The translations under genes were made by a program, and so were the position numbers. This document shows positions 9,183-30,800 of a stretch of 46,219 nucleotides of DNA, one piece after another (within the stretch, counting starts at the first letter, position 1; every line of letters starts with the position of its first letter). Source of the DNA: Verrucomicrobiota bacterium (GTDB taxonomy: Bacteria; Verrucomicrobiota; Verrucomicrobiia; Limisphaerales; Palsa-1400). The stretch lies in assembly GCA_049510745.1 (NCBI GenBank), contig JBEKYR010000043.1, forward strand, positions 1 to 46,219, in the 5' to 3' direction. The notes beneath the pieces were generated by a model, which had not been told where the DNA came from, did not search any database, and saw only the letters and a list, made by a program, of their open reading frames with translations.

Positions 9183-9278
9183 TCAGAGAAAAGATGAGAT
9201 TTCCGAGACGGCTTGCATCGAATCCACGCGCCGCTTAGAATCTGATCCGCCGTGAGGCGGGATGAAATGCTGTGGCAT
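9183..9278 (-). pseudogene. Remnant N-terminus of a four-helix-bundle (suffix) family protein
   Basis: AAGGTG RBS followed by MPQHFIPPHGG, recalling the FIPPHGGY start of that family; resemblance stops after 11 codons (about 9246). Confidence 0.4.
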
Positions 9279-9290
9279 GCTGTTCACCTT

Positions 9291-9389
9291 GGAAAAGGGA
9301 TGGAAGGGACGGAAACGACCGAAAGACAGCCAACAAGCAACCGTTGGAATCTCATTTGTGTCTCTTTTGTCCCTTTGGTTTCTTGTTTC
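9291..9389. repeat. Imperfect inverted repeat built from about 9-nt periodic units (aagggac / gtccctt)
   Basis: Left arm aaagggatg-gaagggacg-gaaacgacc; right arm gtctctttt-gtccctttg-gtttcttgt; central ccaac..gttgg. Confidence 0.45.
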
Positions 9390-9402
9390 ATGCCCATAGC
9401 CC

Positions 9403-10332
9403 TCACTTTTCGCCGGCCGCCAGGACCGTTTGAAAATGGGGCGGCTGCTCCTCGCGCGCCACGACGGCCACTTCAACTTTTTTGAAGCCGGCTTCCTCCA
9501 GCCAGTTCTGCAAATCGCTTTCCGTGAAGCCCAGCCAGCGATCGCCGTAAAGCTCGCGCGCCTGCTCGAAATTGTGCTGCAACAAATCCAGAATCAGCAC
9601 CTGGCCGCGGGGCCGCAAAATCCTGTAGGCGCTGACAATGCCGTCGCGCGGCACGGCCGCGTGATGCAGCGCCTGGCTCAAAAGCACCAGATCGACGCTC
9701 TCCGCTTCGATGGGCGGGTTCTCCAACTCCCCCAAGCGAAATTCCAGGTTCTTGATCTTGTTCTTTCGCGCCTTGGCCATGCCGAACTCCACCATTTTCT
9801 CGGAGTTGTCCACGGCAATGACTTTTTTCGCGCGGCGCGCCAGCAGTTCGCTCAACAACCCTTCGCCCGCCCCCAGATCGGCGATGACCAGGGGCGGGAG
9901 CAGGCGCAAGAGCAATTGTCCGAAGGCCTGCCAGGAGCGGCCGGGGCCGTAGCTGCGGTCGAAGCGCCCCGCCACCTGGTTGAAATAGAGTTGGGCCTGC
10001 TGGGTGCGCCGCAGCAGGATGCGTTTGAGATTCATTTGGTCGGCAGCGTGATCGGGCAGTTCCCGGGCGCCGCGCACCGCCAGTTGGATAAATTCACGGG
10101 TCGCCGGATCGGCGTGGGCCACGATTTTGTAAAAGGTCCTCTTGCCTTCGCGGCGCGATTCCAACAGCCCGGATTCCTGCAACAATCCCAAATGGGTGGA
10201 AATGCGCGATTGCCCCATGCGGGTGATCTCCTGCAGTTCGTGGACCGACAGTTCGCCCTGCTCGAGCAGGGCGACGATGCGCAGGCGGGTGGGGTCCGAC
10301 AACGCCCGCAAGGCTTTCAAGGTGGCCGACAT
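9403..10332 (-). CDS. sahR: ArsR-family HTH fused to a SAM-binding methyltransferase-like domain (SahR-like methionine-cycle repressor)
   Basis: LKALSDPTRLRI-type ArsR HTH; IADLGAGEG SAM motif; LSQALHH; divergent from metK-ahcY; ATG 10332. Confidence 0.82.
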   Translation of the reverse strand: MSATLKALRALSDPTRLRIVALLEQGELSVHELQEITRMGQSRISTHLGLLQESGLLESRREGKRTFYKIVAHADPATREFIQLAVRGARELPDHAADQMNLKRILLRRTQQAQLYFNQVAGRFDRSYGPGRSWQAFGQLLLRLLPPLVIADLGAGEGLLSELLARRAKKVIAVDNSEKMVEFGMAKARKNKIKNLEFRLGELENPPIEAESVDLVLLSQALHHAAVPRDGIVSAYRILRPRGQVLILDLLQHNFEQARELYGDRWLGFTESDLQNWLEEAGFKKVEVAVVAREEQPPHFQTVLAAGEK

Positions 10333-10343
10333 ATAAATAAAGG

Positions 10344-10373
10344 TTGACTCATCTGGCGAATGCATTATATCTT
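10344..10373 (+). promoter_or_regulatory. Putative sigma70 promoter for metK-ahcY
   Basis: TTGACT (10344-10349), 18 nt spacer, TATCTT (10368-10373). Confidence 0.45.
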
Positions 10374-10391
10374 CCTATCAAGATACGTCAA
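10364..10391 (-). promoter_or_regulatory. Putative sigma70 promoter for sahR
   Basis: Minus strand TTGACG, 16 nt spacer, TATAAT. Confidence 0.6.
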
Positions 10392-10394
10392 TAT
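10375..10394. promoter_or_regulatory. Candidate SahR operator
   Basis: CTATCAAGATACGTCAATAT is an imperfect 20-bp palindrome with an ATCAAG half-site; it overlaps the sahR -35 and the region of the predicted metK start site. Confidence 0.5.
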
Positions 10395-10414
10395 GTATTA
10401 AGACCAAAGTAAAC

Positions 10415-11593
10415 ATGAAGAAGAATTATATTTTTTCGTCCGAGTCGGTCGGGGAAGGGCATCCCGACAAAGTTTGCGACACCATATCCGACGCGGTGCT
10501 GGACGCCCACCTGGAGCAGGACCCGCGCAGCCGCGTGGCGTGCGAGACTTACGCCAAAAGCAACATGGTGGTGGTGGGCGGGGAAATCACCAGCAAGGCG
10601 AGGGTCAACCTCAACGAGATTGTGCGCCAATCCATTGCCGGCATCGGCTACGTCAACGAGGACGATGTGTTTCACGCCGAGAAAGTGTTCATCACCAACC
10701 TGGTCACGCGGCAAAGCCCGGACATCGCCCAAGGGGTGGATGCGCGCGCCGCCGAAGGCAAGGAGACGGCGGAGCAGGGGGCGGGGGACCAGGGGCTGAT
10801 GTTCGGCTTCGCCTGTGATGAGACGCCGGAGTTAATGCCGGCGCCGATCATGTTTGCCCACCGGCTGGGGCGGGAATTGAATCGCGTGCGCAAAGCCGGC
10901 CGGGTCGCGTGGCTGCGGCCGGATTCCAAGACCCAGGTATCCGTCCAGTACGAGAACGGCAGACCGGTCCGCATCGTCAACGTCGTGGTCTCCACCCAGC
11001 ACGCGGCGGAGGTCAAACATAAGGAGATCAAGGATTTCATCATCAAGGAAATCGTCCGGAAGGTGCTGCCGGCGGCGATGCTGGACAAGCAGACGCAGTT
11101 TCTGATCAATCCCACCGGACGATTTGTCATCGGCGGCCCGCAGGGCGACACGGGCCTGACCGGGCGCAAGATCATCGTCGATAGCTACGGCGGGATGGGC
11201 CGGCACGGCGGGGGGGCGTTCAGCGGCAAGGACCCCTCGAAGGTGGACCGGAGCGCGGCCTACATGGGCCGCTACGTCGCCAAGAACATCGTGGCCGCCG
11301 GTTTGGCCACCCGCGCCGAAATTCAGTTCGCCTACGCCATCGGCCATCCCGATCCGGTGTCGGTGTGCGTCGATACGTTCGGCACGGGCGAAACCAGCGA
11401 TGAAGCGATCGAGGAGGCGGTGAAAGAAGTCTTTAATTTCAAGCCCGCGGCGATCATCAAGCAATTGAATCTGCTGCGGCCCATTTACGGCAAGACCACC
11501 AACTACGGCCATTTCGGCAAGATTGACGACCCCGGCAGCATCACCTGGGAGAAAACGGACAAGGCCGCGGTGCTCAAGAAAGCAGTCAAGTAA
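10415..11593 (+). CDS. metK: S-adenosylmethionine synthetase
   Basis: [33 protein letters not shown] motifs. Confidence 0.98.
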
Positions 11594-11620
11594 ACGATTC
11601 CAAACCCCCTGAAAACTCTT

Positions 11621-13096
11621 ATGCCCATCCAACTTTCCCCTGCCCGCAGAGTCAAGCGCGCGGCGCTTTCCACCGGCAACAGCGGCCCCGGCGCCCAGGA
11701 CTTCAAAGTCAAAGACCTGACGCTGGCCGAGTACGGCCGCAAGGCCATCGACATCGCCGAGCATGAAATGCCCGGCCTCATGGCCATCCGGCGCAAGTAC
11801 GCCGCCGGCAAACCGCTGCGAGGCGTGCGCATCACCGGGTCCTTGCACATGACCGTCGAGACGGCCGTTTTAATCGAGAGTCTGCGCGCCCTCGGCGCCT
11901 CGGTCCGCTGGGCCAGTTGCAACATCTTTTCCACCCAGGACCACGCCGCCGCCGCCATGGCCAAGGCGGGCGTCCCTGTTTTCGCCTGGAAAGGCGAGTC
12001 GTTGGAAGACTATTGGGATTGCACCTTCCGCGCCCTGGCCCACCCCGGCGGTTTGGGGCCGCAGCTCGTGGTGGACGACGGCGGCGACGCCACCTTGCTG
12101 ATCCACAAAGGATATGAATTGGAAAAGGGCAGCGGCTGGGTCAATACAGCCAGCGCCTCGCACGAGGAGGAAGTGATCAAGAATCTGCTCAAGCGCCTGC
12201 ACAAGGAGCGCCCGTCCTTCTGGCGCGGCGTCGTCCGGGATTGGAAAGGCGTGAGCGAAGAGACCACCACCGGCGTGCATCGCCTTTATCAGATGAAGGA
12301 AGCGGGCAAGCTGCTCGTCCCGGCCATCAACGTGAACGACTCGGTCACCAAATCGAAGTTCGACAATCTTTACGGCTGCCGCGAATCGCTGGCCGACGGC
12401 ATCAAGCGCGCCACCGATGTGATGGTCGCCGGGAAGGTGGCGGTGGTGTGCGGATATGGGGACGTGGGCAAAGGCTGCGCCCATTCCTTGCGCGGCTTTG
12501 GCGCGAGGGTGATCGTCACGGAAATCGACCCCATCAACGCGCTGCAGGCGGCGATGGAAGGATTTGAGGTCACGACCATCGAGGAATCGCTGGGACGCGC
12601 CGACATTTATGTCACATGCACGGGCAATTGCGACATCATCACCGTTGAGCACCTGGAAAAAATGAGGGACCAGGCCATTGTCTGCAACATCGGCCACTTC
12701 GACAACGAGATTCAGGTCGATCGGCTCAACCAGCGCGCCGGCGTCAAGAAACTGAACATCAAGCCGCAAGTGGATAAATACACCTTTGCGGACGGGCGCA
12801 GCATCTACCTGCTGGCCGAAGGCCGGCTGGTGAACCTGGGATGCGCCACCGGCCATCCGAGCTTCGTCATGTCCAACTCCTTTTCCAACCAGGTGCTGGC
12901 GCAGATCGACCTGTGGAAGAACAAGGAAACCTACAAACCCGAAGTCTATCGCTTGCCCAAAAAACTGGACGAGGAAGTCGCCCGCCTGCACCTGGAGAAG
13001 ATCGGCGTCAAGCTCACCCGGCTGACAAGCAAACAGGCCGAGTACCTGGGCGTCCCGCCCGACGGCCCTTACAAGCCGGAGCATTACCGGTATTGA
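11621..13096 (+). CDS. ahcY: Adenosylhomocysteinase
   Basis: [50 protein letters not shown]-terminus. Confidence 0.98.
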
Positions 13097-13103
13097 CCCT
13101 CGA

Positions 13104-14171
13104 TCACTCCGCCGCGCTTTTGTCGGCGGCGCCGAGGTGGGCGGCATATTGCGGATAAAGCCGCTGCATACACTCGGGACAAATGGAATGGGAAAACTCC
13201 GCCCCGGAATGCTGGCGCACGAACGTCTCCAGTTGCTGCCAATAGCCCTGGTCGTCCCGGATTTTTTTGCAGGAAGCGCAGATGGGGAGCAATCCGCTCA
13301 AGGTCTTGACCTTGGAGAGCATCTGGTTCAAATGCTCGATCAGATGCGTGCGTTCCTCTTCCATCTTTTTGCGTTCGGTCACGTCGAAGGCGATGGAGGA
13401 GGCGCCGATGATCTGGCCGTCGCCGTTCTTGATCGCGGAAAGGGTCAGGAAGATGTCCACGGGCGAGCCGTCCTTGCGCAGGCGCACGGTTTCCAATTGG
13501 ACAGGCCCCTGGCTGCGCCCCAGTTTGGACATGAGCAGGTCCGTCTGGTGGTGCAGGGCCGGCGGCACGAGCATCGAGGCCGCGCGCCCCAAGGCCTCCG
13601 CCGCCGGGTAACCGTAGAGCCGCTCGGCGCCGGAATTCCAGGTGGTGATCACGCCCTCAAGATTCTGGCCGATGATGGCTTCCTCCGCCGAATCCACAAT
13701 GGCGGCGAGGTAAGCCAGTTTCTCCAACGCGGCGGCGCCTTCCCGCCGGATTTGAACCTCGCGCAATTCCCGTTCGATGGCGGGGATGAGCCGGCTCAAG
13801 CTGCCCTTGACAATAAAGTCACTGGCGCCGGCGTTCATCAAATCGACCGCGCGTTCTTCGCCAATGGCGCCCGACACCACGATCAAGGGCACATCGAGCT
13901 TGTTTTTTTTGAGCAACTCCAAGGCGGGCCGGACGCTGAAACTGGGCAGTTGGTAGTCGCACAGGATCATGTCCCAAACCTCGCTGCGAAGCGCTTCCTC
14001 CATGGCGGCCTGGGACCAGACGCGGCGGTGATGGGTGTCGTAGCCGTTGGCCTGCAAATAGCGCAGCAAGAGTAACGCATCGAATTCCGCGTCCTCCACC
14101 AACAGGACTCGGAGCGTTCGCCTCTGGCTGGGAGCTGCTGGAGCGGTCCCAGTTGGTTGTTCAGATTTCAT
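13104..14171 (-). CDS. Response regulator: REC + PAS + C-terminal CxxC...CxxC domain
   Basis: LLVED, ILCDYQLP and FIVK receiver residues; WNSGAERLYGY...RKDG PAS; tail LPICASCKKIRDD...SHSICPEC; start at ATG 14171 after GGTGG. Confidence 0.85.
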   Translation of the reverse strand: MKSEQPTGTAPAAPSQRRTLRVLLVEDAEFDALLLLRYLQANGYDTHHRRVWSQAAMEEALRSEVWDMILCDYQLPSFSVRPALELLKKNKLDVPLIVVSGAIGEERAVDLMNAGASDFIVKGSLSRLIPAIERELREVQIRREGAAALEKLAYLAAIVDSAEEAIIGQNLEGVITTWNSGAERLYGYPAAEALGRAASMLVPPALHHQTDLLMSKLGRSQGPVQLETVRLRKDGSPVDIFLTLSAIKNGDGQIIGASSIAFDVTERKKMEEERTHLIEHLNQMLSKVKTLSGLLPICASCKKIRDDQGYWQQLETFVRQHSGAEFSHSICPECMQRLYPQYAAHLGAADKSAAE

Positions 14172-14301
14172 TTCACCACCCGCCATAATACGAGCACCGA
14201 CTTGTGATGCCAGCACCGATTGTGCCACCGGGTTGACATCCGGTCAATCCCCATCCACTCTCTCTCCGGCGCGGGCGGAGACAGGGCGCCTGGTTCTCTC
14301 A

Positions 14302-14484
14302 ATGATGCAGGAATCCGGTTCAGTTCAATGTCCCTTTTGTGGACAACGCTTCGATCTGGCGATCGAGACAAGCCAGGCGGAGCAGCAGTTTATTGTGGAT
14401 TGCGAGGTTTGTTGCCGGCCCCTGCGGGTTTCCGTCACCTGCGAGGCCGGGGAAATCCTGGATTTGCGGGCCGAGGCCGATTAA
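14302..14484 (+). CDS. CPXCG-motif cysteine-rich small protein
   Basis: VQCPFCG...EQQFIVDCEVCCRP matches the Cys-rich CPXCG family pattern. Confidence 0.85.
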   Translation: MMQESGSVQCPFCGQRFDLAIETSQAEQQFIVDCEVCCRPLRVSVTCEAGEILDLRAEAD

Positions 14485-17683: not shown

Positions 17684-19297
17684 CTATGCGGGATCAAAAA
17701 TAGAGCGGCTTTCAGGCGGGCGGGAATTGGTTTTCGCTGTCTGCGCTGTCTCCGCCAGTTCTTCAGGGTCAGTCTTCAACAGTCTAACCAACTCTTCCAT
17801 GAAGCCGGGGAAGTTGGTGTCTGAATAAGCGATGCCCTGCCAATACTGGACTTCGGCAATTTCCGGGGGAATGGGGATGCCTCCTTTGGGCTTGAAATCG
17901 AACCCGTCGTGGAAGATGGGAATGCGGGGCTTTTGCACAGCAACCGCGTGGCGGAGTTCCTCAAGGACCCAATCGACTTCGCCTTCGCGCTGCGCCAGCG
18001 TGTTGGGAGAGAGGATGATGAGAAAATAGCTGGCGTGTTCGATGTTTCGCCTGAGTCGCTCTGGAAACTTGCCCACACGAGGCTCGTCCACGTCAATAAA
18101 CGCCTTATAGCCGAAGCGCCTGATATCCTTGGCGATCAGCATCGCCAAGGGGCTGTCGCCTGCCCGGCGGTAACTGATAAAAGCAATGTAAGGGTCGGGT
18201 TTGGGTCTCCATAAGACCAGCGCCAATGCTCCAAAGGGTTGTCCGAACGCTGGCCCAAGCCAAGCCCACCACCGGTGGAGATGCCATTGGACGCAGAGCG
18301 AGGCCGCGCACAGCAGCACGGCCCCAGCCACCGCCGTCAGAATCAAAATCCAGATCGGTTTCCGCGACAGGAAGTAAAGAGCGGACGTAATGATGGCTCC
18401 CCAGAAGGACGCCAAAAGCCATTGGCAGGCTTGCGGCAGCCGGCGCAGCCAGTCGTCGTGAAGCAAATTCAACACAGCCGTGGCGTGAATCTCGAGTCCA
18501 GGCATGGGTCCCATGCCGAAACGCGAATACGGGGTGGCAAAGGCGTCCTTGAGTTGCGGCCGGCTATCAGGCGGCAGGCTCTGCCCGATGAAAACGAGTT
18601 TTCCGGCAAAAAACCCCGCCGGGACCTTTGTCGTCAGCGCATCTTGAAAAGGACAATGAAGGATGGCCGAGCCGCCCGGGCGGCCGTAATAGTTGAGCCA
18701 GCGGTCGGCGTTGGAATCTTCGGCGGCGAGTTTTTTTGGCTCCAGATTGGCCGCGGCCACCCAGCCGGCATACTTGACGTTGGCAAAGTCACCGGAGATT
18801 CTCCGGACGGTGTCGTCGCGAATGCCGGCGTGTCCCCAGCCCAGGGCGTTGGTCCGGAAATGGAGAATTGGCGGTGAGACCGCGTCCACCCCCGCCATGC
18901 CGTACTCCGTGCCGCTGTTGACCTCCGCCGCCAGAATGACCGAGCCGTTGTGGGCAATCGCCTGCGCCAGCGTCGCGTCCGCGGTCGCGACGGCGCCGGG
19001 GTCGGAGAAGAGAAAGTCGCAGAAGGCAAGTTTGGCGCCGTCCTGCGCCAGGCGATCCAGAAGGCGCGCCTGGCTAATCCGGCTCAGGGTGCGAGGGTCA
19101 CCCAGTTCATCCAGGGAGACACGATCGGCCAGGACGATGACAGCGTTGGTCACTGGGGCGGTTGGTGTGGCCCAGGTGGAGAGGTCAAAGCTCAAATCCT
19201 CCAGCGGCGTGAAGCTCGTCAAGGCAATGCCCCAGGTGACGCAAATGACCACCAGCCAAATCAGCCTGCTCAGCCAGAATGGAAGTCTGTTCTTCAC
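17684..19297 (-). CDS. CHASE2 sensor - transmembrane helices - TIR domain protein
   Basis: N-terminal TM; CHASE2 motifs (ARLLDRL..DFLF, KLVFIG, DAFATPY, MPGLEIHATAVLNLL); three TMs; TIR FISYRR..FIDVD..ILSP..DWVLEE. Confidence 0.88.
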   Translation of the reverse strand: MKNRLPFWLSRLIWLVVICVTWGIALTSFTPLEDLSFDLSTWATPTAPVTNAVIVLADRVSLDELGDPRTLSRISQARLLDRLAQDGAKLAFCDFLFSDPGAVATADATLAQAIAHNGSVILAAEVNSGTEYGMAGVDAVSPPILHFRTNALGWGHAGIRDDTVRRISGDFANVKYAGWVAAANLEPKKLAAEDSNADRWLNYYGRPGGSAILHCPFQDALTTKVPAGFFAGKLVFIGQSLPPDSRPQLKDAFATPYSRFGMGPMPGLEIHATAVLNLLHDDWLRRLPQACQWLLASFWGAIITSALYFLSRKPIWILILTAVAGAVLLCAASLCVQWHLHRWWAWLGPAFGQPFGALALVLWRPKPDPYIAFISYRRAGDSPLAMLIAKDIRRFGYKAFIDVDEPRVGKFPERLRRNIEHASYFLIILSPNTLAQREGEVDWVLEELRHAVAVQKPRIPIFHDGFDFKPKGGIPIPPEIAEVQYWQGIAYSDTNFPGFMEELVRLLKTDPEELAETAQTAKTNSRPPESRSIFDPA

Positions 19298-19317
19298 GTC
19301 AAGCGAATCGCCCGTCC

Positions 19318-19347
19318 ATACTAATTGTGTGGAGACACCGAAGTCAA
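19318..19347 (-). promoter_or_regulatory. Putative sigma70 promoter of the CHASE2-TIR gene
   Basis: Minus strand TTGACT, 18 nt spacer, TAGTAT, about 20 nt upstream of the GTG start. Confidence 0.35.
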
Positions 19348-19475
19348 TTCAGCGATCCTTCAATAATTCAGTCTGGGCGGCGCGCCGCCGTTCGATGACA
19401 AGCGTGTCAATCGGTTCATGCGCAGTTGGGTGTTGACTCAGGCGCGGCGTTTGCGGATGGTAGCGGCAAACCCAA

Positions 19476-22400
19476 ATGAACATCTCAGTGTCCGCGAACG
19501 CTGCCCGCAGCGCGCGCCGCGGTGTCCGGCTGCGCCTGGTATTGACTGGAACCACGGCGCTCCTCACAGCGATGACCGCCGGGTGGTTTGCCCCGGAGGC
19601 GAGCGCCGGCGAGACGCCGCCCGCGGCGGAGTTGACCAACAAAACAGGGAGTTTTGAATACAGCCAGCCCGGGGGGCGGCACGGGGCCGACGCCGGGCTT
19701 CCGTTTCCCATGTTTGTCGGCGATCAGATATGGACCCGGACCAACAGCACGGCGGTGGTGTTGATGCGCAACGTGGGCGCCTCGATCAAGTTGAGAGAGT
19801 TGAGTTCCCTAAAAATCCTGCCGCCCGAGAATGATTCCAGCCCGATTATCAACCTGCTCAAAGGCGCGCTCTATTTTTTTAGCCGGGAGCGGTCTTCGGC
19901 GCCGTCGTTCCGGACTCCGTTCGCCACCGGGGCGCATATCGGAACGGAGTTCGTGCTGGTGGTCGAGGAAGAGCGAACGCTGCTGCAGGCGCTGGATGGA
20001 GTGGCGAAGCTGAGCAACGAACAAGGCGCGCTTGAACTGCGCCGCGGCGAAGTGGGAGAGGCCCGGAAAGGGAGGCCGCCGGTGAAAATTCGCCTTGAGG
20101 CAACGAACATCGTCCAATGGTGGCTCTACTATCCCGGCGCTCTCGACGTCGATGAAGTCAGTTTTTCGCCGTCGGAAAGAGCGGCCTATGCGCAGTCCAT
20201 CGACGCCTACCGGCTCGGAGATTTGGCGGGCGCGCTCGCCGCCTTGCCCGGTTCCCCCTCTTCCATCGAGCCGATGACGGACTCCGGGCGCGTCTTCCTG
20301 TCGGCGCTCTACTTGGCGGCCGGCGGCGTGGACAAGGCGGAAAGGCTGCTGGACAAAGCGGACGCGGCATCCTCGACGGCAGCGTCTCTGCGCTGGGTGA
20401 TCGCGGCCGCGCAGGGGAATCTGGAGCGACCTCCCGCGGTTGGAAGATCGGCCAGCGAATGGCTTGGATTGTCCTATTATTACGAGGCTCGACATGAATT
20501 GAAAAAGGCGCTGGAGGCAGCCTATTGGTCCCTTGGAACGGAAACCAACTTCGGATTTGGGCTGGAACGGGTGGCGGAACTGGAGTTCAGCTTTGGCCAT
20601 GTCGGGAAAGCGAAAGCGGCCTTGAACGAGAGCCTCAGGGCAGCCCCGCGCAACGCCCAGGCCCACGCCTTGATGGGATTCCTCGACAGCGCGGAAAACA
20701 GTGTAAAGCAAGCCCGGAGCGAATTTGAGCAGGCCATCCGTCTGGACCCCAACCTTGGCAACGCGTGGCTGGGGCGGGGCCTGGTGAAAATCAGGAGCGG
20801 CGAGGCGGCGGCGGGCAGAATGGATTTGCAAATGGCGGCCATTCTGGAGCCAAACAGATCATTGTTTCGCAGTTACCTGGGCAAGGCATTTGGCGACGCG
20901 GGCAAGGACGCCCCAGCGGCCGCGGAATTGCAGCGGGCGGAAGGACTGGACGCGAAAGACCCCACTCCCTGGCTCTACTCTGCGCTCCAGGAACAGCAGC
21001 AAAACCGGGTCAACCCGGCCATTTATGATTTGCAAGCCGCCCAAACCAACAACGACAATCGGATGGTGTTTCGGTCGCAACTGTTGCTGGACGAAGATCG
21101 CGCCGTGACCGGCGCCAATCTGGCCTCCGTTTACCGCGATGCCGGCATGACCGGGGTGAGTGTGCGTGAGGCCGCGCGGGCGGTGACAGACGACTACGCA
21201 AACGATTCAGCTCATTTGTTTCTGGCGGACAGCTTCTACGATTTGCGGGATCCGACCCAATTCAACCTGCGTTACGAAACGGTTTGGTTCAACGAACTGC
21301 TCCTGGCCAATGTGTTGGCTCCGGTGGGAGGCGGCCGCCTTTCCCAGGAGGTTTCGCAGCAGGAATACTCCAAACTTTTCGAGGCGGACGGTCTTCATCT
21401 TGCCAGTTCCACCGACGCGCGGTCGGATGGAATGTTTCATCAACTGGCCTCGCAATATGGCACGTTCGGGAACACTTCCTACGCGCTCGACCTGGATTAT
21501 CACCACAACAACGGCGTTCGCGTGAACAACGCTCTCGATGATATTGAGTGGAATACCACCATGAAGCAGCAAATTACTCCCCGTGACACCGCCATGCTGC
21601 TGGTCCAATACCAGGATTATCATTCCGGAGACAATTTCCAGTACTACTATCAAACCAACGCGCGGTCGTTCTACAAATTCGACGAACAGCAGCAGCCAAT
21701 TTTAGTCGGCGCATGGCATCATGAGTGGGGCCCCGGCATCCATACCGTGCTCTTGGTTGGCAGGCTGGTGGACGATCAGCAATTCAGCGATCGGGCCGCG
21801 CCGCAATTGCTCTTCGCCGAACGCCAGTCGGGAGCCATCTATGGGGCGAACGCGGTGCCTTTCGACGTGAGCTATAATGAAGACTTCGAGATTTACTCCG
21901 CTGAATTGAATCAAATCTGCCAGTGGGACCGTGTTACTTTGCTGGCGGGCGGCCGTTACCAATCCGGCGAGTTCCACACGCAAGATCGGTTTAGCAATCC
22001 GCCGTCCGGCCTTTCCCCTTTGTTCACCCAATCCGGGGCCTACAGCGGCGACACGACTGGTCTTTTCCAGCGCGTTACCGGTTATTCCTATCTGACCGTC
22101 GAGCCGCTGGATCATCTCTGGCTCACCGGCGGCGTGGCGGCTGAAGATGAAAAATTCCCCTATTACTTTCGCAACCCACCCATCACTTCGGGGGAAGACA
22201 CCCGGTCCCAAGTCGGCCCCAAGGCGGCCCTGGTCTGGAGTCCCCTTCCAGAAGCAACCGTGCGCGGTATTTATACCCGCTCCCTGGGGGGCGTCAGTCT
22301 CGATGAAAGTTACCGTCTGGAGCCTACCGAACTGGCTGGGTTTCCCCAAGCCTTCCGCAGCCTTATTTCCGAGTCGATTGTTGGCTCGCAATCGGCCCCT

Positions 22401-23018
22401 ACGTTTGACACCTTGGGTGCGGCGCTTGACCTGAAATTGGGACGCCGCACTTATGCCGGAATCCAGTTCGAGCAACTAGGGTCCGATGTCAACCAGGGCA
22501 TCGGCGATTTGGCGCTGCCCGATGGCAGGGTTCCAGCCATTGTTTCCTCCACTGAGGAACTGTTGCATTACACCGAGAACACCTTCTCCGTGAGCCTGAA
22601 CCAGCTTCTCGGTGACGATCTCGTTCTTGGCGCCGCATATAAGATCACCCAATCCGACCTGCACGATGAGCTGCCCGACATCCCGGTCTCAGCCCTGGCG
22701 ACGGCCAATCAAACGCTGAAGGCCAGCCTCCAGGAGGTCGATAGCTACGTCCTATTCAACCATCCGTCAGGCTTTTTTGCCCGGGTCGAGGCACACTGGT
22801 ATGGCCAGCATAATTCCGGCTGGACGCCGGCCGAACCTGACGTCAGTTTCGTCCAGGAGAACCTCTTTGCCGGCTGCCGCTTCGAGCACCGGCGGGCGGA
22901 GTTGCAGCTCGGCCTCCTGAATCTTTCCGGCGGAGGCTACAATTTGAACCCGCTCACCGTCTATCAGGAATTGCCCCGCAAGCGGGTGTTTGAAGCGAGG
23001 TTGAACTTCATTTTCTGA
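19476..23018 (+). CDS. FecR-like + TPR + outer-membrane beta-barrel protein (NsrA-like architecture)
   Basis: Signal peptide; FecR-like GDQIWT..TPFATGAHIGTEF; TPRs (AIRLDPNLGNAWLGRG, RSYLGKAF, DPTPWLY); amphipathic beta strands ending in RLNFIF (BAM beta-signal). Confidence 0.85.
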   Translation: MNISVSANAARSARRGVRLRLVLTGTTALLTAMTAGWFAPEASAGETPPAAELTNKTGSFEYSQPGGRHGADAGLPFPMFVGDQIWTRTNSTAVVLMRNVGASIKLRELSSLKILPPENDSSPIINLLKGALYFFSRERSSAPSFRTPFATGAHIGTEFVLVVEEERTLLQALDGVAKLSNEQGALELRRGEVGEARKGRPPVKIRLEATNIVQWWLYYPGALDVDEVSFSPSERAAYAQSIDAYRLGDLAGALAALPGSPSSIEPMTDSGRVFLSALYLAAGGVDKAERLLDKADAASSTAASLRWVIAAAQGNLERPPAVGRSASEWLGLSYYYEARHELKKALEAAYWSLGTETNFGFGLERVAELEFSFGHVGKAKAALNESLRAAPRNAQAHALMGFLDSAENSVKQARSEFEQAIRLDPNLGNAWLGRGLVKIRSGEAAAGRMDLQMAAILEPNRSLFRSYLGKAFGDAGKDAPAAAELQRAEGLDAKDPTPWLYSALQEQQQNRVNPAIYDLQAAQTNNDNRMVFRSQLLLDEDRAVTGANLASVYRDAGMTGVSVREAARAVTDDYANDSAHLFLADSFYDLRDPTQFNLRYETVWFNELLLANVLAPVGGGRLSQEVSQQEYSKLFEADGLHLASSTDARSDGMFHQLASQYGTFGNTSYALDLDYHHNNGVRVNNALDDIEWNTTMKQQITPRDTAMLLVQYQDYHSGDNFQYYYQTNARSFYKFDEQQQPILVGAWHHEWGPGIHTVLLVGRLVDDQQFSDRAAPQLLFAERQSGAIYGANAVPFDVSYNEDFEIYSAELNQICQWDRVTLLAGGRYQSGEFHTQDRFSNPPSGLSPLFTQSGAYSGDTTGLFQRVTGYSYLTVEPLDHLWLTGGVAAEDEKFPYYFRNPPITSGEDTRSQVGPKAALVWSPLPEATVRGIYTRSLGGVSLDESYRLEPTELAGFPQAFRSLISESIVGSQSAPTFDTLGAALDLKLGRRTYAGIQFEQLGSDVNQGIGDLALPDGRVPAIVSSTEELLHYTENTFSVSLNQLLGDDLVLGAAYKITQSDLHDELPDIPVSALATANQTLKASLQEVDSYVLFNHPSGFFARVEAHWYGQHNSGWTPAEPDVSFVQENLFAGCRFEHRRAELQLGLLNLSGGGYNLNPLTVYQELPRKRVFEARLNFIF

Positions 23019-23024
23019 CCGCGC

Positions 23025-24176
23025 TCATCGCCCCTGCCTGGCCTGCGCCGCGAAGCCTTCCAGCCGTTGAATTACTGTCCGCAACTCCGGCGCCACATTG
23101 GCAAAGCGCGGGTCGGCCAGCCATTCCTGCGCGACGGCCAGCGACTGGGCATCGCGGCTTATCAACGCGTCGTGGTCGGGCGTTGTGTTCTGGGTCAGCA
23201 GGTTGGGCGAGATCATGTAATTGGCGTTTGGATACACGCCGGCAAACGCATTGACCTCGGCGGCGCTGATGGCGGGGTTGAGCAAGTAGCTTTCCAGGAC
23301 TTGTCGTTGCTGCGGGTCGCGCACATCGGCGCGGGCGAAATAATCCGCTCGCGTCGATTCCCGGCCCTGCATCAGATCCGGCGCGGCCTCGAGCGCCGCC
23401 AGCATGGTTGACGGGTTGTTGATGACCAGCCTGTCCAGGGCCAGGAAAGACGCATGTGCCACGGCGGAATTGTCCTGCTGGCGGACCGAGCTCGAGAGCG
23501 CCGGCAGGAGATCCGTGCCGCCGAGAAAGACGGCCACGTCGAAGGCTTCCAGGTATCCGACGGATGGATTTTGCTGCCAGGGCGCGTACTGGAGCATGGC
23601 GGCCGTTTTCTGTTCCAACAGCGCGCGGCCCGCGGCGCTGGCGTCACCCGAGGCCAGGTTGCGCAAAGCCACGGCCCACTCATCCGGTGAATCCATGCTT
23701 GACAGAATTATTTTGGAAGACTCGGCGGCGGCGGCGGGATCGAGCCGCGCCAATTCGTCCAGCAGGAACGTTCGCAGGGTGGGAGCCTCGTCCAGCATGC
23801 CGTTGGACGCGAGCTTGAACCCCAAATGGGTGGGCGCATCGCTTTTTGAATCGAGGAACTGGCGGATGGCGGCCACGGCTTTGTTGACGGGCATGGCGGC
23901 CAGGGACTGGCGCAAGGCCGCCAATTGCTGTCGTGTGATGGCGGCGTTGGAGGCCGAGCGCAACGCGTCACATGCTGCCGGTAGCGCGGGAACACGGGCC
24001 AAAGGGGGCGGCGTGGTTTGCGGGGAGTTTTGCCCCGGCGAAGAAGGCGCTGACATACGAGGCTTGAGCGAGGCGTCAGTTTGAGGACGCGCAAACCAAG
24101 AGGCCAACGCCAGCGCCACCGCCACGGCAGCCAAACTCAACAAGAGCCATTTTGGATTTGTTTTTGGCGATTTCAT
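23025..24176 (-). CDS. Membrane-anchored or exported helical hypothetical protein
   Basis: 383-aa ORF with N-terminal hydrophobic helix, Pro-rich linker and Ala/Leu helical body; convergent with the barrel gene (6 nt gap). Confidence 0.7.
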   Translation of the reverse strand: MKSPKTNPKWLLLSLAAVAVALALASWFARPQTDASLKPRMSAPSSPGQNSPQTTPPPLARVPALPAACDALRSASNAAITRQQLAALRQSLAAMPVNKAVAAIRQFLDSKSDAPTHLGFKLASNGMLDEAPTLRTFLLDELARLDPAAAAESSKIILSSMDSPDEWAVALRNLASGDASAAGRALLEQKTAAMLQYAPWQQNPSVGYLEAFDVAVFLGGTDLLPALSSSVRQQDNSAVAHASFLALDRLVINNPSTMLAALEAAPDLMQGRESTRADYFARADVRDPQQRQVLESYLLNPAISAAEVNAFAGVYPNANYMISPNLLTQNTTPDHDALISRDAQSLAVAQEWLADPRFANVAPELRTVIQRLEGFAAQARQGR

Positions 24177-24295
24177 CTCCGTGCCGGTTTGCTTTGTTTA
24201 TTAGGAGGAAGAACGCAGCAAGGCGCAAGCATAATTGTCTGAATTTGCTCGTTGACGGGCTTCTCCGGAAGCGGTATGTAATTATGTGCATTTGT

Positions 24296-24994
24296 ATGCG
24301 TTACGAGCGACTCCAGGCGAAGTCAGGAGTTTTCTCAGGAGTGTCCCTGATGATCGCTTTTAGCGTTGGCCGAGTTCTTTGCGCGAGTGTCATGGCTGCA
24401 GATGCAACAACGGACGCCGCCGAAATCCAGGCGGTCAAACAGGCGGCGCAAGAGGCCACCAAGATTTTTTATCCACGGGCCGAGAAGCGCAAGCCGGTCT
24501 ATGGATTTGCCGAGGCGGACAACCTGGCATCGGCCGTCTTGGGAGAGCCGGCCAGACTTTTCTTCATCGACGACAAGGATGTTCAGGCCTATCACGATGG
24601 GCAGGCTTTGGATGGCATTCTCAAGCCGGCCGGGGAGTGGTTTGTCCCTGTGGCCATTGGCGGAACCAATCGAGCCATGCTCGGTGTCAAGGACGCTGGC
24701 GACGGCAAATGGATTGGTGCGACCTTTGGCATGGCGCCCCTGGCCCGCAAATGGCAGAGCATTCAAGCCTGGTGGCCATCCTCCGGAAAGTTTACCCCGC
24801 AGCTCGTGATCTGTCCGCCCGCGGAAGGCTATTACTTCACAGTTCCGCAGATTCAACCCCCGAACCTGACGCCGCTGGCCAGTCTTTCAGCCACGGCGAG
24901 CATTTCCGGGCAGGCGCCCAAGCCGGTGTTGGCGCCCGCCGGGGATAGTCTCCGCCCCGTGCAGAAAATGTTGGAAGCGCGGGGCGGCCCTTAA
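24296..24994 (+). CDS. Exported hypothetical protein, partner of the downstream papain-like peptidase (start uncertain)
   Basis: Signal-like segment ending ASVMA-AD; ends 27 nt before the peptidase gene; TTGACG promoter-like element at 24252. Confidence 0.6.
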   Translation: MRYERLQAKSGVFSGVSLMIAFSVGRVLCASVMAADATTDAAEIQAVKQAAQEATKIFYPRAEKRKPVYGFAEADNLASAVLGEPARLFFIDDKDVQAYHDGQALDGILKPAGEWFVPVAIGGTNRAMLGVKDAGDGKWIGATFGMAPLARKWQSIQAWWPSSGKFTPQLVICPPAEGYYFTVPQIQPPNLTPLASLSATASISGQAPKPVLAPAGDSLRPVQKMLEARGGP

Positions 24995-25021
24995 CACAAC
25001 AAAATCAACCCCAAAAAGCCT

Positions 25022-26956
25022 ATGAGAAAAGCCTGTTTGACCGTCGCCATCGTGGCAAGCTTGTTCGGAACCTCGCGGCCGGCCACCGCCCTCACCTTGG
25101 CAGGTGTCCCGTATTATTCACAAACGCAGACCTACTGGTGTTGGGCCGCGTGCAGTGAAATGGTCCTGGGATATTACGGAACAAACGTGTCGCAGACCGA
25201 CATTGCCCAGTACGGATCGGACGGAGCCGATGTTCCAAACTATTTGACAGGAACCCATGCCGCGAGCGGCACGACCCCGACCCTCAACGGCGTTGATCTG
25301 ATTCTGCGGAATTTTGGGACTGTTGGCTCCACCTTCTACAACAACGCGCTGTCGGCCGCGCAACTGCAGACGGAAATCACTTCGTCAAACCTGGCCATTA
25401 TTGGACTGGGATGGTGTTCCAACCCAAAAGGAAAGTTCGTCTGGAACGGCGGCGGCCACGTCATTGTCGCATATGGTTTCGACGGCACCACGGTGGATAT
25501 CGATGATCCCGCGCCTGAAAATGGCCAGTTTATGGAACTCTATACGACGTTGCTGGGTGGTCCTGCGGGGACGTATCGCCCCACCTCCGACCGGTTTATG
25601 TGGGTCCAAACCCTGGTGACGGCGTCCTCCATTGACGCGGTGATACAAATTGATTCAACCGGCAGCATGGGTGATGAAATTACCGCCGTCATGCCTGAAG
25701 CCATTGCGATCGCCAACAACATCTTTACCAGCTTTCGTGACGCGCGGGTTGCGGTGGTGGACTATAAGGACAACCCGGATTATTCAGGCGATGAAGAGAA
25801 TCCTACTGACTACATTTCCTTTACCGACCAGACGTTCACCACCAATATGGCCGACATTGTCAGGGCCATCAATGCCATCGGCCCTAAAGTAACTCCCGGC
25901 AGCGGCGGCGACCTACCCGAGGCGGTATATTCGGCGCTTTACAACACCTTGGAAGGGGGCGCTTCGCTGGAGGGCGGATTCACCAACGCCGTGCTAAGCA
26001 CCAATGTGGGAGGCTGGCGGGCAGACCCAGTCAAGCGGATGATTATTAACATCGGCGACGCGGGGGGCCACGATCCAGTCGAGCCTTGGGCTGGGGGCCA
26101 TTCGATTGCCGATGTGGTGGCGCTGGCGTCAACTCCCGGATTTCTCATCAGCATTGATACGATCCCCTGCGCGGTGGATTTTGGCTCCAGTTACGACCCC
26201 CAATGCATCGCGGATTTTGCGGCGCTTTCCGCGGGCAGCGGGGGGGCCAGCCTGCCCGCTGGCAACGCGGGCGAATTGCTGAGCAATATCACACAGGTTA
26301 TTCAGCAGAATTCCGCGTCTGACCGTGCGCCGAGCGGCTCGGTGGCGGCAATCGAGCCTGTCTTCAAGTTTAGCTTCGATGGAAGCGGGATGTTTGCCCC
26401 CCCCAGCTACTACGAAATTCAGGTCCTTCATTCCAACGCCCACAAAGGAACCTTTTCCACCTACATCTCCGCTCACGTGCCCACCAACCACTACGTGCCC
26501 AAAAGCCCGATGCCCACCAACACCTACCGCTGGCGCATTGGCTTCGCCCAACCGGCCTCCAAAATCATCTCGGCCGATGGTAAAAAGCTGGGAACCTTTC
26601 CCGCCAGAGTTGTTTATGACAATGCGTACAGTGAGTTTCAGCGTGAACCAGTTCTGCCAGGGGCGGCGGTAGCACTCACGCCCAGCGCCAGCTTTGCAGC
26701 CACGAATGCAACGATGTTCTACAGTTGGACGGCAGGCATCAGCGCCACATCTTACTCCGTGGCGATCTACGCTTTCCACGCCAAAAAGGACGTGTACAAG
26801 CTCTGGAAACGCGTCACCGTCAAGCCTCCGGCGAAAAATCCCACGGAGGCAACGCTCTCCGTCAAGGTCGGCGGCCATAAGAAGGGCGCTGAGTACGAGT
26901 GGACGGTCGAATCCTTGAACTACGATCATCCCAAACCGACTCTGACGACCGAGTAG
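25022..26956 (+). CDS. Secreted C39-like (papain-fold) cysteine peptidase + vWA domain + C-terminal beta-sandwich domains
   Basis: Signal peptide; YYSQTQTYWCWAACSEM (Gln/Cys), GGHVIVAYG (His), IDDP (Asp); vWA IDSTGSM, YKD, GGDLPEA, IGDA. Confidence 0.8.
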   Translation: MRKACLTVAIVASLFGTSRPATALTLAGVPYYSQTQTYWCWAACSEMVLGYYGTNVSQTDIAQYGSDGADVPNYLTGTHAASGTTPTLNGVDLILRNFGTVGSTFYNNALSAAQLQTEITSSNLAIIGLGWCSNPKGKFVWNGGGHVIVAYGFDGTTVDIDDPAPENGQFMELYTTLLGGPAGTYRPTSDRFMWVQTLVTASSIDAVIQIDSTGSMGDEITAVMPEAIAIANNIFTSFRDARVAVVDYKDNPDYSGDEENPTDYISFTDQTFTTNMADIVRAINAIGPKVTPGSGGDLPEAVYSALYNTLEGGASLEGGFTNAVLSTNVGGWRADPVKRMIINIGDAGGHDPVEPWAGGHSIADVVALASTPGFLISIDTIPCAVDFGSSYDPQCIADFAALSAGSGGASLPAGNAGELLSNITQVIQQNSASDRAPSGSVAAIEPVFKFSFDGSGMFAPPSYYEIQVLHSNAHKGTFSTYISAHVPTNHYVPKSPMPTNTYRWRIGFAQPASKIISADGKKLGTFPARVVYDNAYSEFQREPVLPGAAVALTPSASFAATNATMFYSWTAGISATSYSVAIYAFHAKKDVYKLWKRVTVKPPAKNPTEATLSVKVGGHKKGAEYEWTVESLNYDHPKPTLTTE

Positions 26957-26958
26957 CG

Positions 26959-27816
26959 ATGAAAAAACTGTGCGGCATTGCGGTGCTTTTGGCGGTGGCG
27001 ATTGTCTGCTTGCGACAGCGGCAGGCAACCCCTGATCCAGAGGGGCGGTTTGGGACGGCGGTCCCGGCGGCCAATCCAGCGCCATCGTCCGGGCCAATCG
27101 TCCCGGAAACGGAAACCTCCGCTCCGGCTGTGCAACCCTCCGAGCAGATAGTTGATGAGGGCAGCGCCATTGCGCCGGCGGTTTCCAGCGCCGCAGCCGA
27201 TGCGGCTGACGCATCCGCGGCGGTGGCCGGTTCCTCGGTGGCGTCGCGGGAAAGGCATGGCAAATTGAATTCACCGCAAAAACCGTTGACCGCGGAAACC
27301 GCCTATCTGGCGACCCTGCCGCCGGTCGAAACGATCGTGCTGGAGGAGGAGGAAAACGGCCAGGTGATCTTTCAAGCAGACCCCGCGACGATGGGGCCAG
27401 ACGGCTTTCCTCTGCTTTTGCAAGCGGCGATGGAAAAGCCGGACGAAGTCGCGGCCGTCGATTTGGTGGCGATGTTCCAGTCGGAGGAAAGCGCCGAAAC
27501 CAAGCTGGAAATCCTTAGTGCGTCAAGTTTGCTGGAGCCGGATCAAAACACGCAAAAACTCCTGGAACTGGCGCTCGGTCCTGATCAACCGCAGGAACTG
27601 CGCATTGCGGCCGTGGCGTACATGGCTGATCAAGATCCCTCCAAGCTGGCTTCCTATTTCCACGACTCCGACCCGGATGTGAGCCTTGAGGCGCAAAGTG
27701 CCTATGAGAGGCTTAGCCTGCCCGCGCCGACCACAATCATTGGGTACCAGGCGCAGCCCCCGCCACAAAATCTGGCCACTCCCCCTGACTCGATAAATTA
27801 TGTTCGCACGCATTAG
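26959..27816 (+). CDS. Membrane-anchored acidic protein with HEAT-like C-terminus
   Basis: MKKLCGIAVLLAVAIVC N-terminus; ELRIAAV..DSDPDVSLEA HEAT-like motifs; 2 nt after the upstream stop, overlaps the downstream start. Confidence 0.65.
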   Translation: MKKLCGIAVLLAVAIVCLRQRQATPDPEGRFGTAVPAANPAPSSGPIVPETETSAPAVQPSEQIVDEGSAIAPAVSSAAADAADASAAVAGSSVASRERHGKLNSPQKPLTAETAYLATLPPVETIVLEEEENGQVIFQADPATMGPDGFPLLLQAAMEKPDEVAAVDLVAMFQSEESAETKLEILSASSLLEPDQNTQKLLELALGPDQPQELRIAAVAYMADQDPSKLASYFHDSDPDVSLEAQSAYERLSLPAPTTIIGYQAQPPPQNLATPPDSINYVRTH

Positions 27817-30800
27817 TTTCGTGACGATCATTTTAGGCCTCTGCTCCGCCAGCGCGCAAACCGGCTTCTCAGACGGCATTGAAAACGACATGGTCGCCGC
27901 TGTCTCCGGCGAAACCAATTTCACCAGCATTGGCCTCGCCGCGGAGGAAGGCACGGTTTGGTTTGGCGATGTGACTGTGGCGCAGGCGTCTGATTTAAGC
28001 CCGATTTCAAACACCAGTCTGTGGGCCATGGGCTGGAATAATTATGGCCAGTTGGGCGACGGCACCACTGACAACGGCAACTACCACACCAACCTCCCGG
28101 AGATGATTGTATCCAGCAGGGTCACGGCCATTGCCGCCGGAGCCGATTACAGCCTGTTTCTCAAGAGCGACGGAAGTCTGTGGGCTATGGGCAATAACCA
28201 ATATGGCCAGTTGGGCGACGGCACCACTAATCTACATCTCCTTCCCGAGCAGATTGTGCCGAGCGACGTCACGGCGATTGCCGCCGGAGCCTACCACAGC
28301 CTGTTTCTCAAGAGCGACGGCAGTCTGTGGGCCATGGGCTGGAATTATTATGGCCAGTTGGGCGACGGCACTATGAATTTAGAGAGCCTTCGTCCCGAGC
28401 AGATTGAGCCGAGCCACGTCACGGCGATTGCCGCCGGAGCCAGCCACAGCCTCTTTCTCAAGAGCGACGGCAGTCTGTGGGCCATGGGCTGGAATAGTTA
28501 TGGGCAGTTGGGCGACGGAACTTTCAATTCAGAGAGCCTCAGTCCCGAGCAGATTGTGTCGAGCCACGTCACGGCGATTGCCGGCGGAGCCAGCCACAGC
28601 TTGTTTCTCAAGAGCGACGGCAGCCTGTGGGCCATGGGCTGGAATAATTATGGCCAGTTGGGCGACGGCACCACCGATAACGGCACCTTCGACACCAACG
28701 CTCCCGAGCAGATTGAGTCGAGCAACGTCACGGCGATCGCTGCCGGATGGTTCCACAGCCTGTTTGTCATGACAGACGGCAGCCTGTGGGTTATGGGCGA
28801 TAACGAATATGGCCAGTTGGGCGACGGCACTACCAATTCACAACTCCTCCCCGAGCAGATTATGTCGAGCAACGTCACGGTGATTGCCGCCGGAGCCTAC
28901 CACAGCCTGGTTCTCAAGAGCGACGGCAGCCTGTGGGTTATGGGCGATAACGGATATGGTCAGTTGGGCGACGGCAGTTTAACCCAAACCAACCTTCCCG
29001 AGAAGATTATGGGCAGCAATGTTACGGCGATTGCTGCCGGATACTACCACAGCCTGTTTATTGGCGCTTCCGGGACGCCGGCCACCGGGCAGCTCCAAGT
29101 CACGCTCGTTCCGCCCGCCGCCAACGGCCAATGGCGCTTTCCGTGGGAAGTGAATTGGCGTAATAGCGGCTCGGTGGCAACGAATCTTGTCGCGGGCGAG
29201 TATCCCATCGTGTTTAGCACTGTGCCAGGCTACTTGATCCTCCCGCTCTCAGGGCCGGTGACCGTCACCAGTGGCGCGACAACGTTCGTCACCAATCAGT
29301 ATCGTGCCAATACCTCGTCGAGCAACGTGAACACAGTGGGATTGCTCACGGTAAACCTTGGGCCAAGCCCGCCCAGCGGAGCCGGTTGGGGGATCCTGGG
29401 CGGCGCTCCGCCCTCCTTCCCTTCCGGCTACAGTATCAACCTGGCGGCTGGAACCTATCTGATTGATTTCGCGCCGGTCGCCGGATTTGCCACGCCCGCC
29501 AATCTCTCCGTTCTGGTCGTGCCAGGTGTTCCAATGGTGCTGGCGGTAACCTATCAGCAGGATTTAACAAATCCGCCGACCGGCTTTAGTTTGCCCGTGC
29601 CGGTTCCGTCCGGCAACATCGGGGACCTGACCAATCCTTTTGGGTTTAATGGCCAGTTGGTTTCGGATGTGGGCTACGGGAGCGGGGTGGCGGTGCAGAC
29701 GAACGTGGTGCTGACGGCAGCGCACCTGGTGTTCAACGACCAGACTCTGTCTTACGCGAGCCAAGCCACTTGGTTTTTCCAGGAGGAAACAGGTGTTTTT
29801 GCGCCGGACCCGATGCAGGCGCGAGGCTGGTATGTGCTCAGCGGCTATGCGGCGCAACGAATCAGCGATGTGCAGGGTGGCCTCGGACAGTATCAATCGA
29901 CGCCGGCGTCGCGGAACCTGGACGTGGCGGCATTGTACTTTACGTCAGCGGTGGCGGGAGGCGGTTATGCAGAATGTCTGTTTTCAGATGCGACGATCAA
30001 TCCCTGGCTGACGAGCACGAATGAGAAGATGCTGGTGGGTTACCCGGTGGACGGGTCGCAGTTTGACGTCGCCAACATTGTCAATGGCGAGATGTATGAA
30101 ATCCTGCCACAAACGAATGCTCTGAGTCAGGCCACAGATGATCCTTCGGCAAACGAGCAGGTTTACCTGGCCACCTGGTTTTTGAGTTATCCGGGCAACA
30201 ACGGAGGTTCGCTTTATGTGCAATCCAACGGCCTTTATTATCCGGCAGCCGTGTATTTGGAAACATTGTTCAACGGCAGTCAGCCCTATGCGTCGGCCGT
30301 GCGGGCCATTAATAGCGACGTGACGAACCTGATCAATCTGGCGGCAACCGAGGGTGACAGCGGGTCGAACTTTGGCGGTGGCGGCGTGGTTACTCTTAGC
30401 GGCGTGGTGCTTGGCGGCTGGATGCGGGGCTCATCCAGTCAGGTCAGCTCGAACAATCCCGGCTATGTGCAAATACAACTTCAGCCGGCCTCGGCGGTGG
30501 AGGCCGGGGCCGGTTGGCGTTTGCAGGGTGATGCCACCTATAACATCTCGGACGGCGTTGAGTTGGTGTATTCAAGCAATGTGCTGATCGAGTTCGCCCC
30601 GGTCAACGGGTATAGCCTGCCCACGAATCAGACCATAACAGTGGTGCCAGGGCAGGTCTCTAGCAGCATTGCGCTTTACGCGACCAATTCTAGTTTTGTG
30701 CCGGCGCCGGCCGGGGGGCTGACGGTTCTGACCAATGGCGTCGGCAAAATCACCAGCGCCAGTGGGGCCACCAATGGCGCGCTCTTGAAAACGGGCAAGA

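Follow-up and report, generated by a model that had tools for sequence, protein, structure and literature searches.

A CHASE2-TIR receptor gene paired with an NsrA-like outer-membrane protein gene in a Verrucomicrobiota bacterium: an output variant, apparently not described before, of a known type of receptor

A 46,219-nucleotide contig from a Verrucomicrobiota bacterium of the order Limisphaerales (assembly GCA_049510745.1, contig JBEKYR010000043.1; "the window" below means this whole stretch) carries two head-to-head open reading frames (ORFs), at 17684-19297 on the minus strand and 19476-23018 on the plus strand, with a gap of 178 nucleotides between them (19297 to 19476). The first encodes an inner-membrane receptor of 537 residues, in which a periplasmic CHASE2 sensor precedes a TIR domain resembling that of SARM1. 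The second encodes an outer-membrane protein of 1180 residues with a FecR domain, a TPR array and a beta-barrel. Judged by its sequence, the pair is a two-membrane receptor of the NsrA/CyaK type in which a SARM1-like TIR, probably an enzyme, takes the place of the cyclase. It is a real, conserved output variant of a known receptor type, apparently undescribed, and the two proteins very probably function together. The divergent pair had been picked out in a preliminary description of the window, with which ORFs, Pfam matches and structure models all agree.

The CHASE2-TIR gene starts with GTG. Pfam places CHASE2 at residues 18-302 (E 7e-30; 18392-19246, minus strand) and TIR_2 at residues 373-466 (E 9e-12), inside a TIR domain that spans residues ~369-508 (17774-18193, minus strand). 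An AlphaFold model (predicted local distance difference test, pLDDT, 82) has a helix at residues 7-28, CHASE2, three helices at 289-363 and the TIR; a plain hydropathy scan calls two of these four membrane helices. Four membrane passes would put the TIR in the cytoplasm, and the order of CHASE2 followed by three membrane helices has also been described elsewhere (PMC5192318). Structural searches listed no match for the CHASE2 part. A chance neighbourhood or an assembly chimera was considered and rejected, because 19 other clusters at 90% identity carry both Pfam domains (the domain-architecture search returned CHASE2 with TIR_2 in 20 clusters, the window's included, among 41 matches) and one contig spans the locus. 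That single contig covers 17000-28068 with no differing letters, in a run that is possibly the source of the window itself. The window's contig, C43, belongs to a genome with 94% completeness, and the four sequencing runs with contigs matching the locus are peat metagenomes.

The TIR domain resembles animal NADases more closely than it does ThsB of Thoeris. By sequence its nearest entries in PDB are Caenorhabditis elegans TIR-1 (E 1.5e-19) and human SARM1 (E 3.5e-15), the best entry that does not look animal reaching E 0.18 only, and a family profile matches the same two at E 1e-29 to 1e-34. The fold comparison gives Z 19.1 and 18.5 for TIR-1 and SARM1 and 12.3 for ThsB. Among solved TIRs these two rank first both in sequence (E 1e-15 to 1e-19) and in fold (Z 17-19), and box 1 (FISYR) and the Trp-x-x-x-Glu site (DWVLEE, with Glu447 encoded at 17957-17959) align with them. 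The domain is thus SARM1-like and does not belong to the ThsB type of Thoeris (Z 12.3 vs 19.1). The window protein was ruled out as a SARM1 orthologue: it has no ARM or SAM domains, its membrane helices instead tethering the TIR to a periplasmic sensor, and it lacks the motif H-D/E-Y-Q that marks the EE loop of SARM1 (PMC7075850). This type of TIR is not new, because SARM1's TIR is known to branch among bacterial TIRs (PMC13142454) and 1481 TIR-like representatives at E 1e-10 are fused in many architectures. Its position behind CHASE2 is new.

Conservation within the family argues for an enzyme. Glu447, Trp443, Phe373, Ser375, Tyr376, Arg377 and Asp402 are invariant in the 20 aligned CHASE2-TIR sequences, and the catalytic Glu is present in all 23 fusions of a wider set (22 scored by pattern, one by eye). 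The TIR is under purifying selection with its catalytic Glu intact: the ratio of nonsynonymous to synonymous change is 0.07-0.11 in five close pairs and 0.23-0.37 for pairs with the window copy, the latter near saturation. The TIR is likely to be an active enzyme of nicotinamide adenine dinucleotide (NAD+) in this family. A TIR tree of 113 rows and 141 columns, with a resolution too poor to count fusions, places 16 fusion TIRs and one TIR fragment on one starred branch and scatters the other fusions; one fusion, P0011 (L037, 6851-8842), was dropped from it for an insertion of ~120 residues inside the TIR, directly after the catalytic helix.

It is distinctly improbable that the TIR serves as a scaffold, or makes a mild messenger of the adenosine diphosphate ribose (ADPR) type that regulates ordinary genes in place of cyclic adenosine monophosphate (cAMP), without growth arrest. 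The TIR does occupy the slot of cyclases and kinases. The gene also has a candidate sigma-70-like promoter, TTGACT-18-TAGTAT (19318-19347, minus strand, 20 nucleotides ahead of the start), whose TTGAC and the TA of whose second box are invariant in all eight aligned intergenic regions; this housekeeping-type promoter, a consensus match only, suggests steady expression. Conservation of the Glu is not by itself proof of activity, the residue being kept in more than 70% of all TIRs and not always with activity (PMC7075850), a point that counts against the enzymatic reading too. However, the solved structures nearest to it are those of NADases, the neighbourhood has no conserved regulator gene, and the sole recurrent downstream partners are effector-like.

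The 1180-residue protein has a likely signal peptide, read by eye, and a C-terminal Phe. Pfam finds FecR at E 2e-4, under the curated cut-off, weak TPR matches and no barrel family. A model of residues 45-1180 (pLDDT 89.9, predicted template-modelling score 0.86) shows a FecR-like beta domain (residues ~50-210; 19623-20105, plus strand), TPR helices and 22 long strands by our own count from the DSSP list, giving a predicted barrel over residues ~639-1179 (21390-23015, plus strand). The best Foldseek matches of this barrel are all TonB-dependent-transporter barrels (E 3e-14). The protein has no Pfam match to a canonical plug, and no sigma factor gene lies beside the barrel gene in the window.

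A 1190-residue FecR-TPR-barrel protein of Sinorhizobium meliloti, UIJ92907.1, was first met as a weak match in a plasmid search. Our family profile A2 aligns with it over 978 columns (probability 99.7, E 4e-27, 23% identity), and a CHASE2 cyclase gene comes after its gene, in line with the likeness to NsrA/CyaK named in the preliminary description. We presume that UIJ92907.1 is NsrA because its size, its barrel span of 600-1200 (PMC7529298) and its neighbouring gene agree; the record itself does not carry that name. NsrA and CyaK are required for S. meliloti to sense free ribosomal protein uL2 (PMC7529298), a signal present in lysates, and bacterial and yeast extracts are also active (PMC7529298; PMC13001267). 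CyaD1 without its CHASE2 is constitutive (PMC5498481). NsrA with CyaK, CyaD1 and CyaD2 shares with the window pair the FecR-TPR-barrel architecture of ~1200 residues and the input of CHASE2 and membrane helices, but the output is a cAMP cyclase there and a TIR here, and here the genes stand head to head with an additional orphan protein, a secreted protease and an optional SLATT effector. A Burkholderia BiofilmReg operon likewise sets a FecR gene (LysM-FecR) beside a CHASE2 receptor with three further helices (PMC5192318), but its output is a histidine kinase and it has neither barrel nor TPR. In the record of S. meliloti Ak57 (L195, 8325-10276) the CHASE2 cyclase gene that follows the barrel gene is itself split over two frames.

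Gene linkage supports the pairing and also shows what it means. Twenty-six rows were typed as CHASE2-TIR; without three duplicates and one window copy, 22 loci remain, of which 17 are informative (at least 1.3 kb upstream) and five end too early. In all 17 the CHASE2-TIR gene adjoins a barrel gene, 14 divergently and 3 in tandem, from ~12 distinct sequences, so the co-occurrence on which the preliminary description depended is borne out. As a control, a barrel gene lies within 5 kb upstream in 30 of 40 CHASE2 loci with cyclase, kinase or His-kinase outputs, picked for long stretches from 150 matches listed. Barrel pairing is therefore the default for the CHASE2 family, and the pair amounts to a known module with its output exchanged. 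Of the candidate new signalling system proposed before, the new output stands; the receptor was already known. The same genome holds two more barrel paralogues (L019, 5710-11457; L020, 5677-13991). One is in tandem with a CHASE2 cyclase, a separate pair on contig C48, and the other, on C60, precedes an Ig-rich secreted protein of 1567 residues and has no CHASE2; a third CHASE2 cyclase of the genome (L021) has no barrel gene in 16 kb.

A quick, unrooted CHASE2 tree, from which P0110 was removed by a coverage filter, puts 27 of 28 TIR-type rows on one branch (Shimodaira-Hasegawa-like approximate likelihood ratio test 93) among cyclase types, with L133 apart on a long branch. The simplest reading would be that a TIR replaced the cyclase, perhaps more than once. 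The divergent CHASE2-TIR of L133 is possibly of independent origin; in that locus (503-14388) a 2866-residue protease, a barrel protein, the CHASE2-TIR and a SLOG-like protein are encoded in a run. The fusion is rare and patchy: in the order at least 5 of 301 genomes have it, in the family 2 of 31, and it was found in neither of the 2 other genomes of the genus. The relatives with related loci are labelled Verrucomicrobiae or Limisphaerales. It is not confined to Verrucomicrobiota, because an Atlas cluster of 80 CHASE2+TIR_2 proteins of ~600 residues is commonest in Pseudomonadota (phylum known for 24). Neither a profile search started from P0110 nor a plasmid search brought up another CHASE2-TIR, and a cyanobacterial candidate was rejected when it proved to be a His kinase. 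In L022, L023, L024 and L035, synonymous distance in three pairs is ~1.3-1.9 in CHASE2 and 0.25-0.43 in the TIR, and this disparity makes the CHASE2 alleles look mosaic and suggests sensor exchange by recombination.

The FecR domain is the part of the barrel protein that most clearly follows CHASE2. In a mirror-tree test on 27 tandem loci, with L133 and L106 left out and the rest of the protein partialled out, FecR distances correlate with CHASE2 distances (partial rho 0.61, p 0.001). No such tracking is seen for either TPR half or for the second and third barrel thirds, and the barrel end beside the CHASE2 gene shows no correlation (-0.17). Linkage works against this signal, because in tandem loci FecR lies farthest from the CHASE2 gene and the barrel end nearest. 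Among 19 cyclase-only loci FecR again tracks CHASE2 (0.55, p 0.007) and not the cyclase of the same gene (0.13, p 0.19). The barrel of L093 is 72-78% identical to that of the window, yet its FecR is 28% and its CHASE2 33-38% identical; the L093 locus joins a barrel close to the window's with FecR and CHASE2-TIR parts of foreign type. From these patterns we strongly infer that CHASE2 has its partner in the barrel protein's periplasmic FecR domain.

Several observations pull the other way. In five close relatives the allele of FecR does not predict that of CHASE2: L036 and L035 share 91% in FecR but 57-68% in CHASE2, and L036 and L024 share 88-93% in CHASE2 but 71% in FecR. The first barrel third also tracks CHASE2 weakly (0.27, p 0.008), the kin in the mirror-tree sets are not independent, and a correlation of this sort can arise from the shared history of two periplasmic domains that do not touch. 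The correlations lend some support to the FecR-CHASE2 coupling proposed earlier. Complex prediction of FecR-TPR (residues 45-560) with the periplasmic CHASE2 domain, on paired alignments of 19 rows, scored 0.00 twice, but its controls did not fold, so the score counts neither for nor against contact.

A SLATT effector gene lies within 6 kb downstream in 10 of the 14 TIR loci that extend at least 2.5 kb, and in L133 as well, in 4 of 9 lineages, a count that rests on near-copies and on a profile seeded from TIR loci. None is found near non-TIR loci (0/19 and 0/36; the control sets may overlap), and the same effector family adjoins other, CHASE2-less TIR proteins in 3 of 9 further loci (L136, L139, L140). 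Its SLATT_1 assignment is firm; its N-terminal part, which we take to be SLOG-like by a motif, carries that label weakly (SLOG-clan Pfam E 0.07-0.18, no match in PDB). A profile search found no SLATT/SLOG-like effector in the window's genome (G000) or in G038 or G115. Searches of the window's own genome with the STALD and SLATT_1 families gave no match, and were uninformative as the controls went unmatched too.

In type VII Thoeris, SLATT effectors read cyclic ADPR made by a TIR (10.64898/2025.12.03.692087). The likeness to Thoeris type VII (TIR and SLATT) and to types I and III (SLOG effectors) lies in a TIR enzyme adjoining a SLATT effector, in 4 of 9 lineages; the difference is that here the TIR is not ThsB-like and is part of an envelope receptor, and that no effector was found in the genome. 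Thoeris membership was rejected: the TIR has no ThsB_TIR Pfam match, it scores 15.9 bits with ThcB4 against a cut-off of 220, its Z to ThsB is 12.3 vs 19.1, and no cognate Thoeris effector gene shares its operon in the window.

These partners bring up a dedicated anti-phage system, in which adsorption or envelope damage at the barrel would trigger abortive NAD+ loss or a cyclic ADPR signal to SLATT. We regard this as improbable. The patchy spread (at least 5/301 in the order, 2/31 in the family, 0/2 in the genus) fits it, as do the SLATT, patatin, SIR2-TIR and STAND genes downstream in relatives and sensor alleles that look mosaic beside a conserved TIR. However, no defence genes lie near the window copy, 5 of 9 lineages lack the effector, what rhizobia sense through this receptor class is a soluble protein, and PADLOC matches are to the TIR only.

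Two further genes recur around the receptor, one for an orphan protein and one for a secreted protease; like the optional SLATT effector, they were absent from the preliminary description. The orphan (23025-24176, minus strand) is a protein of 383 residues, anchored to the membrane by its N-terminus. Its gene converges on that of the barrel protein across a gap of 6 nucleotides and is placed likewise in 7 other CHASE2-TIR loci. In Atlas it falls in unnamed Verrucomicrobiota clusters, with a weak HEAT lead (11-18% of members). The second gene (27800-31993, plus strand) encodes a secreted RCC1-propeller protein of 1397 residues, whose module, a pair of beta-rich repeats combined with a trypsin-like domain, is common to secreted proteins with other propellers in front; in the trypsin-like family 13 of 13 match Trypsin_2 at E up to 0.1, the best at 4e-8. 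His642 and Asp708 are kept, and the Ser position is Asn801 (30200-30202), so the His-Asp-Ser triad of S1 proteases is incomplete in the window copy; the Ser is present in 25 of 27 relatives, and contigs of all four runs agree on the Asn codon with no other letters. Orphan and propeller-trypsin protein are each single-copy in the genome, and both families occur in all four CHASE2-TIR genomes found without them as query. They are not TIR-specific, because they also stand beside barrel genes with kinase, cyclase or no CHASE2 neighbours. Between the two genes (24152-27816) lie three exported-looking ORFs, of 280 residues without a family, of 644 residues with a C39-like peptidase and a VWA domain, and of 305 residues with an anchor, none of which recurs in three or more related loci.

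Such loci would fit a machine in which barrel and orphan mainly serve the export, folding or display of the propeller-proteases, with CHASE2-TIR as a guard that raises the alarm when the machine or its cargo is interfered with. Across the 301 genomes the trypsin module occurs in 26, the orphan in 25 and both in 19; barrel, orphan and protease often cluster without CHASE2 in the stretch (L096, L099, L102, L105, L110), some genomes have 3-5 proteases but one orphan, and the C60 barrel paralogue stands before its 1567-residue secreted protein with no CHASE2. Even so, we consider this unlikely. At the 40 cyclase or kinase loci the barrel pairs with CHASE2 (30/40), and protease or orphan appear at none of them (0/40, ~1 kb past the barrel covered). 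FecR tracks CHASE2, and the rhizobial homologue is a signal receptor (PMC7529298).

We lean slightly towards a mechanism that starts when a protein or peptide from outside docks on the barrel, passes from FecR to CHASE2 and ends in NAD+ cleavage by assembled TIRs, which would give a signal read by SLATT or, in this genome, a growth brake or a signal for which no SLATT reader was found. On the model of the rhizobial system, an extracellular protein or peptide would bind the barrel loops, FecR would then free the output from the hold of CHASE2, and the TIRs, tethered to the membrane, would come together and split NAD+, with ADPR or a cyclic ADPR as product. In loci that encode a SLATT membrane effector downstream, the TIR product is probably a signal that SLATT reads. 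In the window's genome, because no SLATT effector was found, the more likely result is slower growth through loss of NAD+, or a signal that has another protein as its reader. The secreted propeller-protease and the anchored orphan would probably act upstream, making or presenting a peptide cue; this is the weakest step, the Ser being lost here. The chances that the circuit serves in stress or danger are evenly balanced. A rather unlikely extension is a Toll-like danger circuit, in which the propeller-protease would free peptides from damaged neighbours or intruders, and barrel, FecR-CHASE2 and TIR would shut the cell down before infection; that its TIR step would supply cyclic ADPR to a SLATT effector or drain NAD+ is part of the same rather unlikely reading. 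With Toll and Toll-like receptors the system shares an outside sensor, a passage through the membrane, a cytoplasmic TIR and possibly a secreted serine protease upstream. It differs in having no leucine-rich repeats, two membranes and a TIR that is probably enzymatic, which makes this analogy and not homology.

Besides the missing SLATT effector and the near-copies behind its count, other features of the window sit poorly with the receptor mechanism. The neighbours of the pair are housekeeping and secreted-protein genes with no defence genes among them, PADLOC has no model for the CHASE2-TIR/barrel pair, and the window TIR has a longer branch and a BB loop unlike the rest of the family. It is very improbable, though, that the family is real and this genome's copy is decaying. 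The change of the protease Ser to Asn, the longer TIR branch and the absence of a detected SLATT effector would fit decay, but neither ORF is disrupted, Glu447 and the promoter persist, and a sister protein at 74% identity (P0004) has the same TIR variant with its Glu.

No description of a CHASE2-TIR fusion was found in the literature searched, which was mostly open-access with few subscription papers. The CHASE2 passage of PMC8195603 concerns another system. The term CHASE is absent from the main text of 10.64898/2025.12.03.692087, whose Table S1 of more than 10,000 TIR proteins could list such fusions. In the literature covered, bacterial TIR systems are triggered by phage, and none is wired to an envelope receptor. 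If our reading is right, placing a SARM1-like TIR behind a receptor that spans two membranes would allow NAD+ breakdown to be started from outside, before entry; the architecture suggests that outside cues can trigger NAD+ breakdown. The FecR-CHASE2 signal names a likely contact in a widespread receptor class of which NsrA/CyaK is the only tested member, and the family offers natural, membrane-controlled relatives of the SARM1 enzyme domain.

Elsewhere in the window, an HrpB helicase gene follows CHASE2-TIR. A secreted RCC1/Ig protein of 1508 residues (4283-8809, minus strand) has a weak TIGR03790-like C-terminus and no trypsin module, and an ArsR-methyltransferase fusion is divergent from metK and ahcY (9403-13096). 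The stretch 33411-36029 (minus strand) encodes two ice-binding-like proteins, of which one carries a VPDSG-CTERM sorting motif. A kaiC-kaiB-kaiB cluster lies amid histidine kinases and a LuxR-type regulator (36684-44677, plus strand), and the first kinase of this region (36684-37499) has no ATPase domain.

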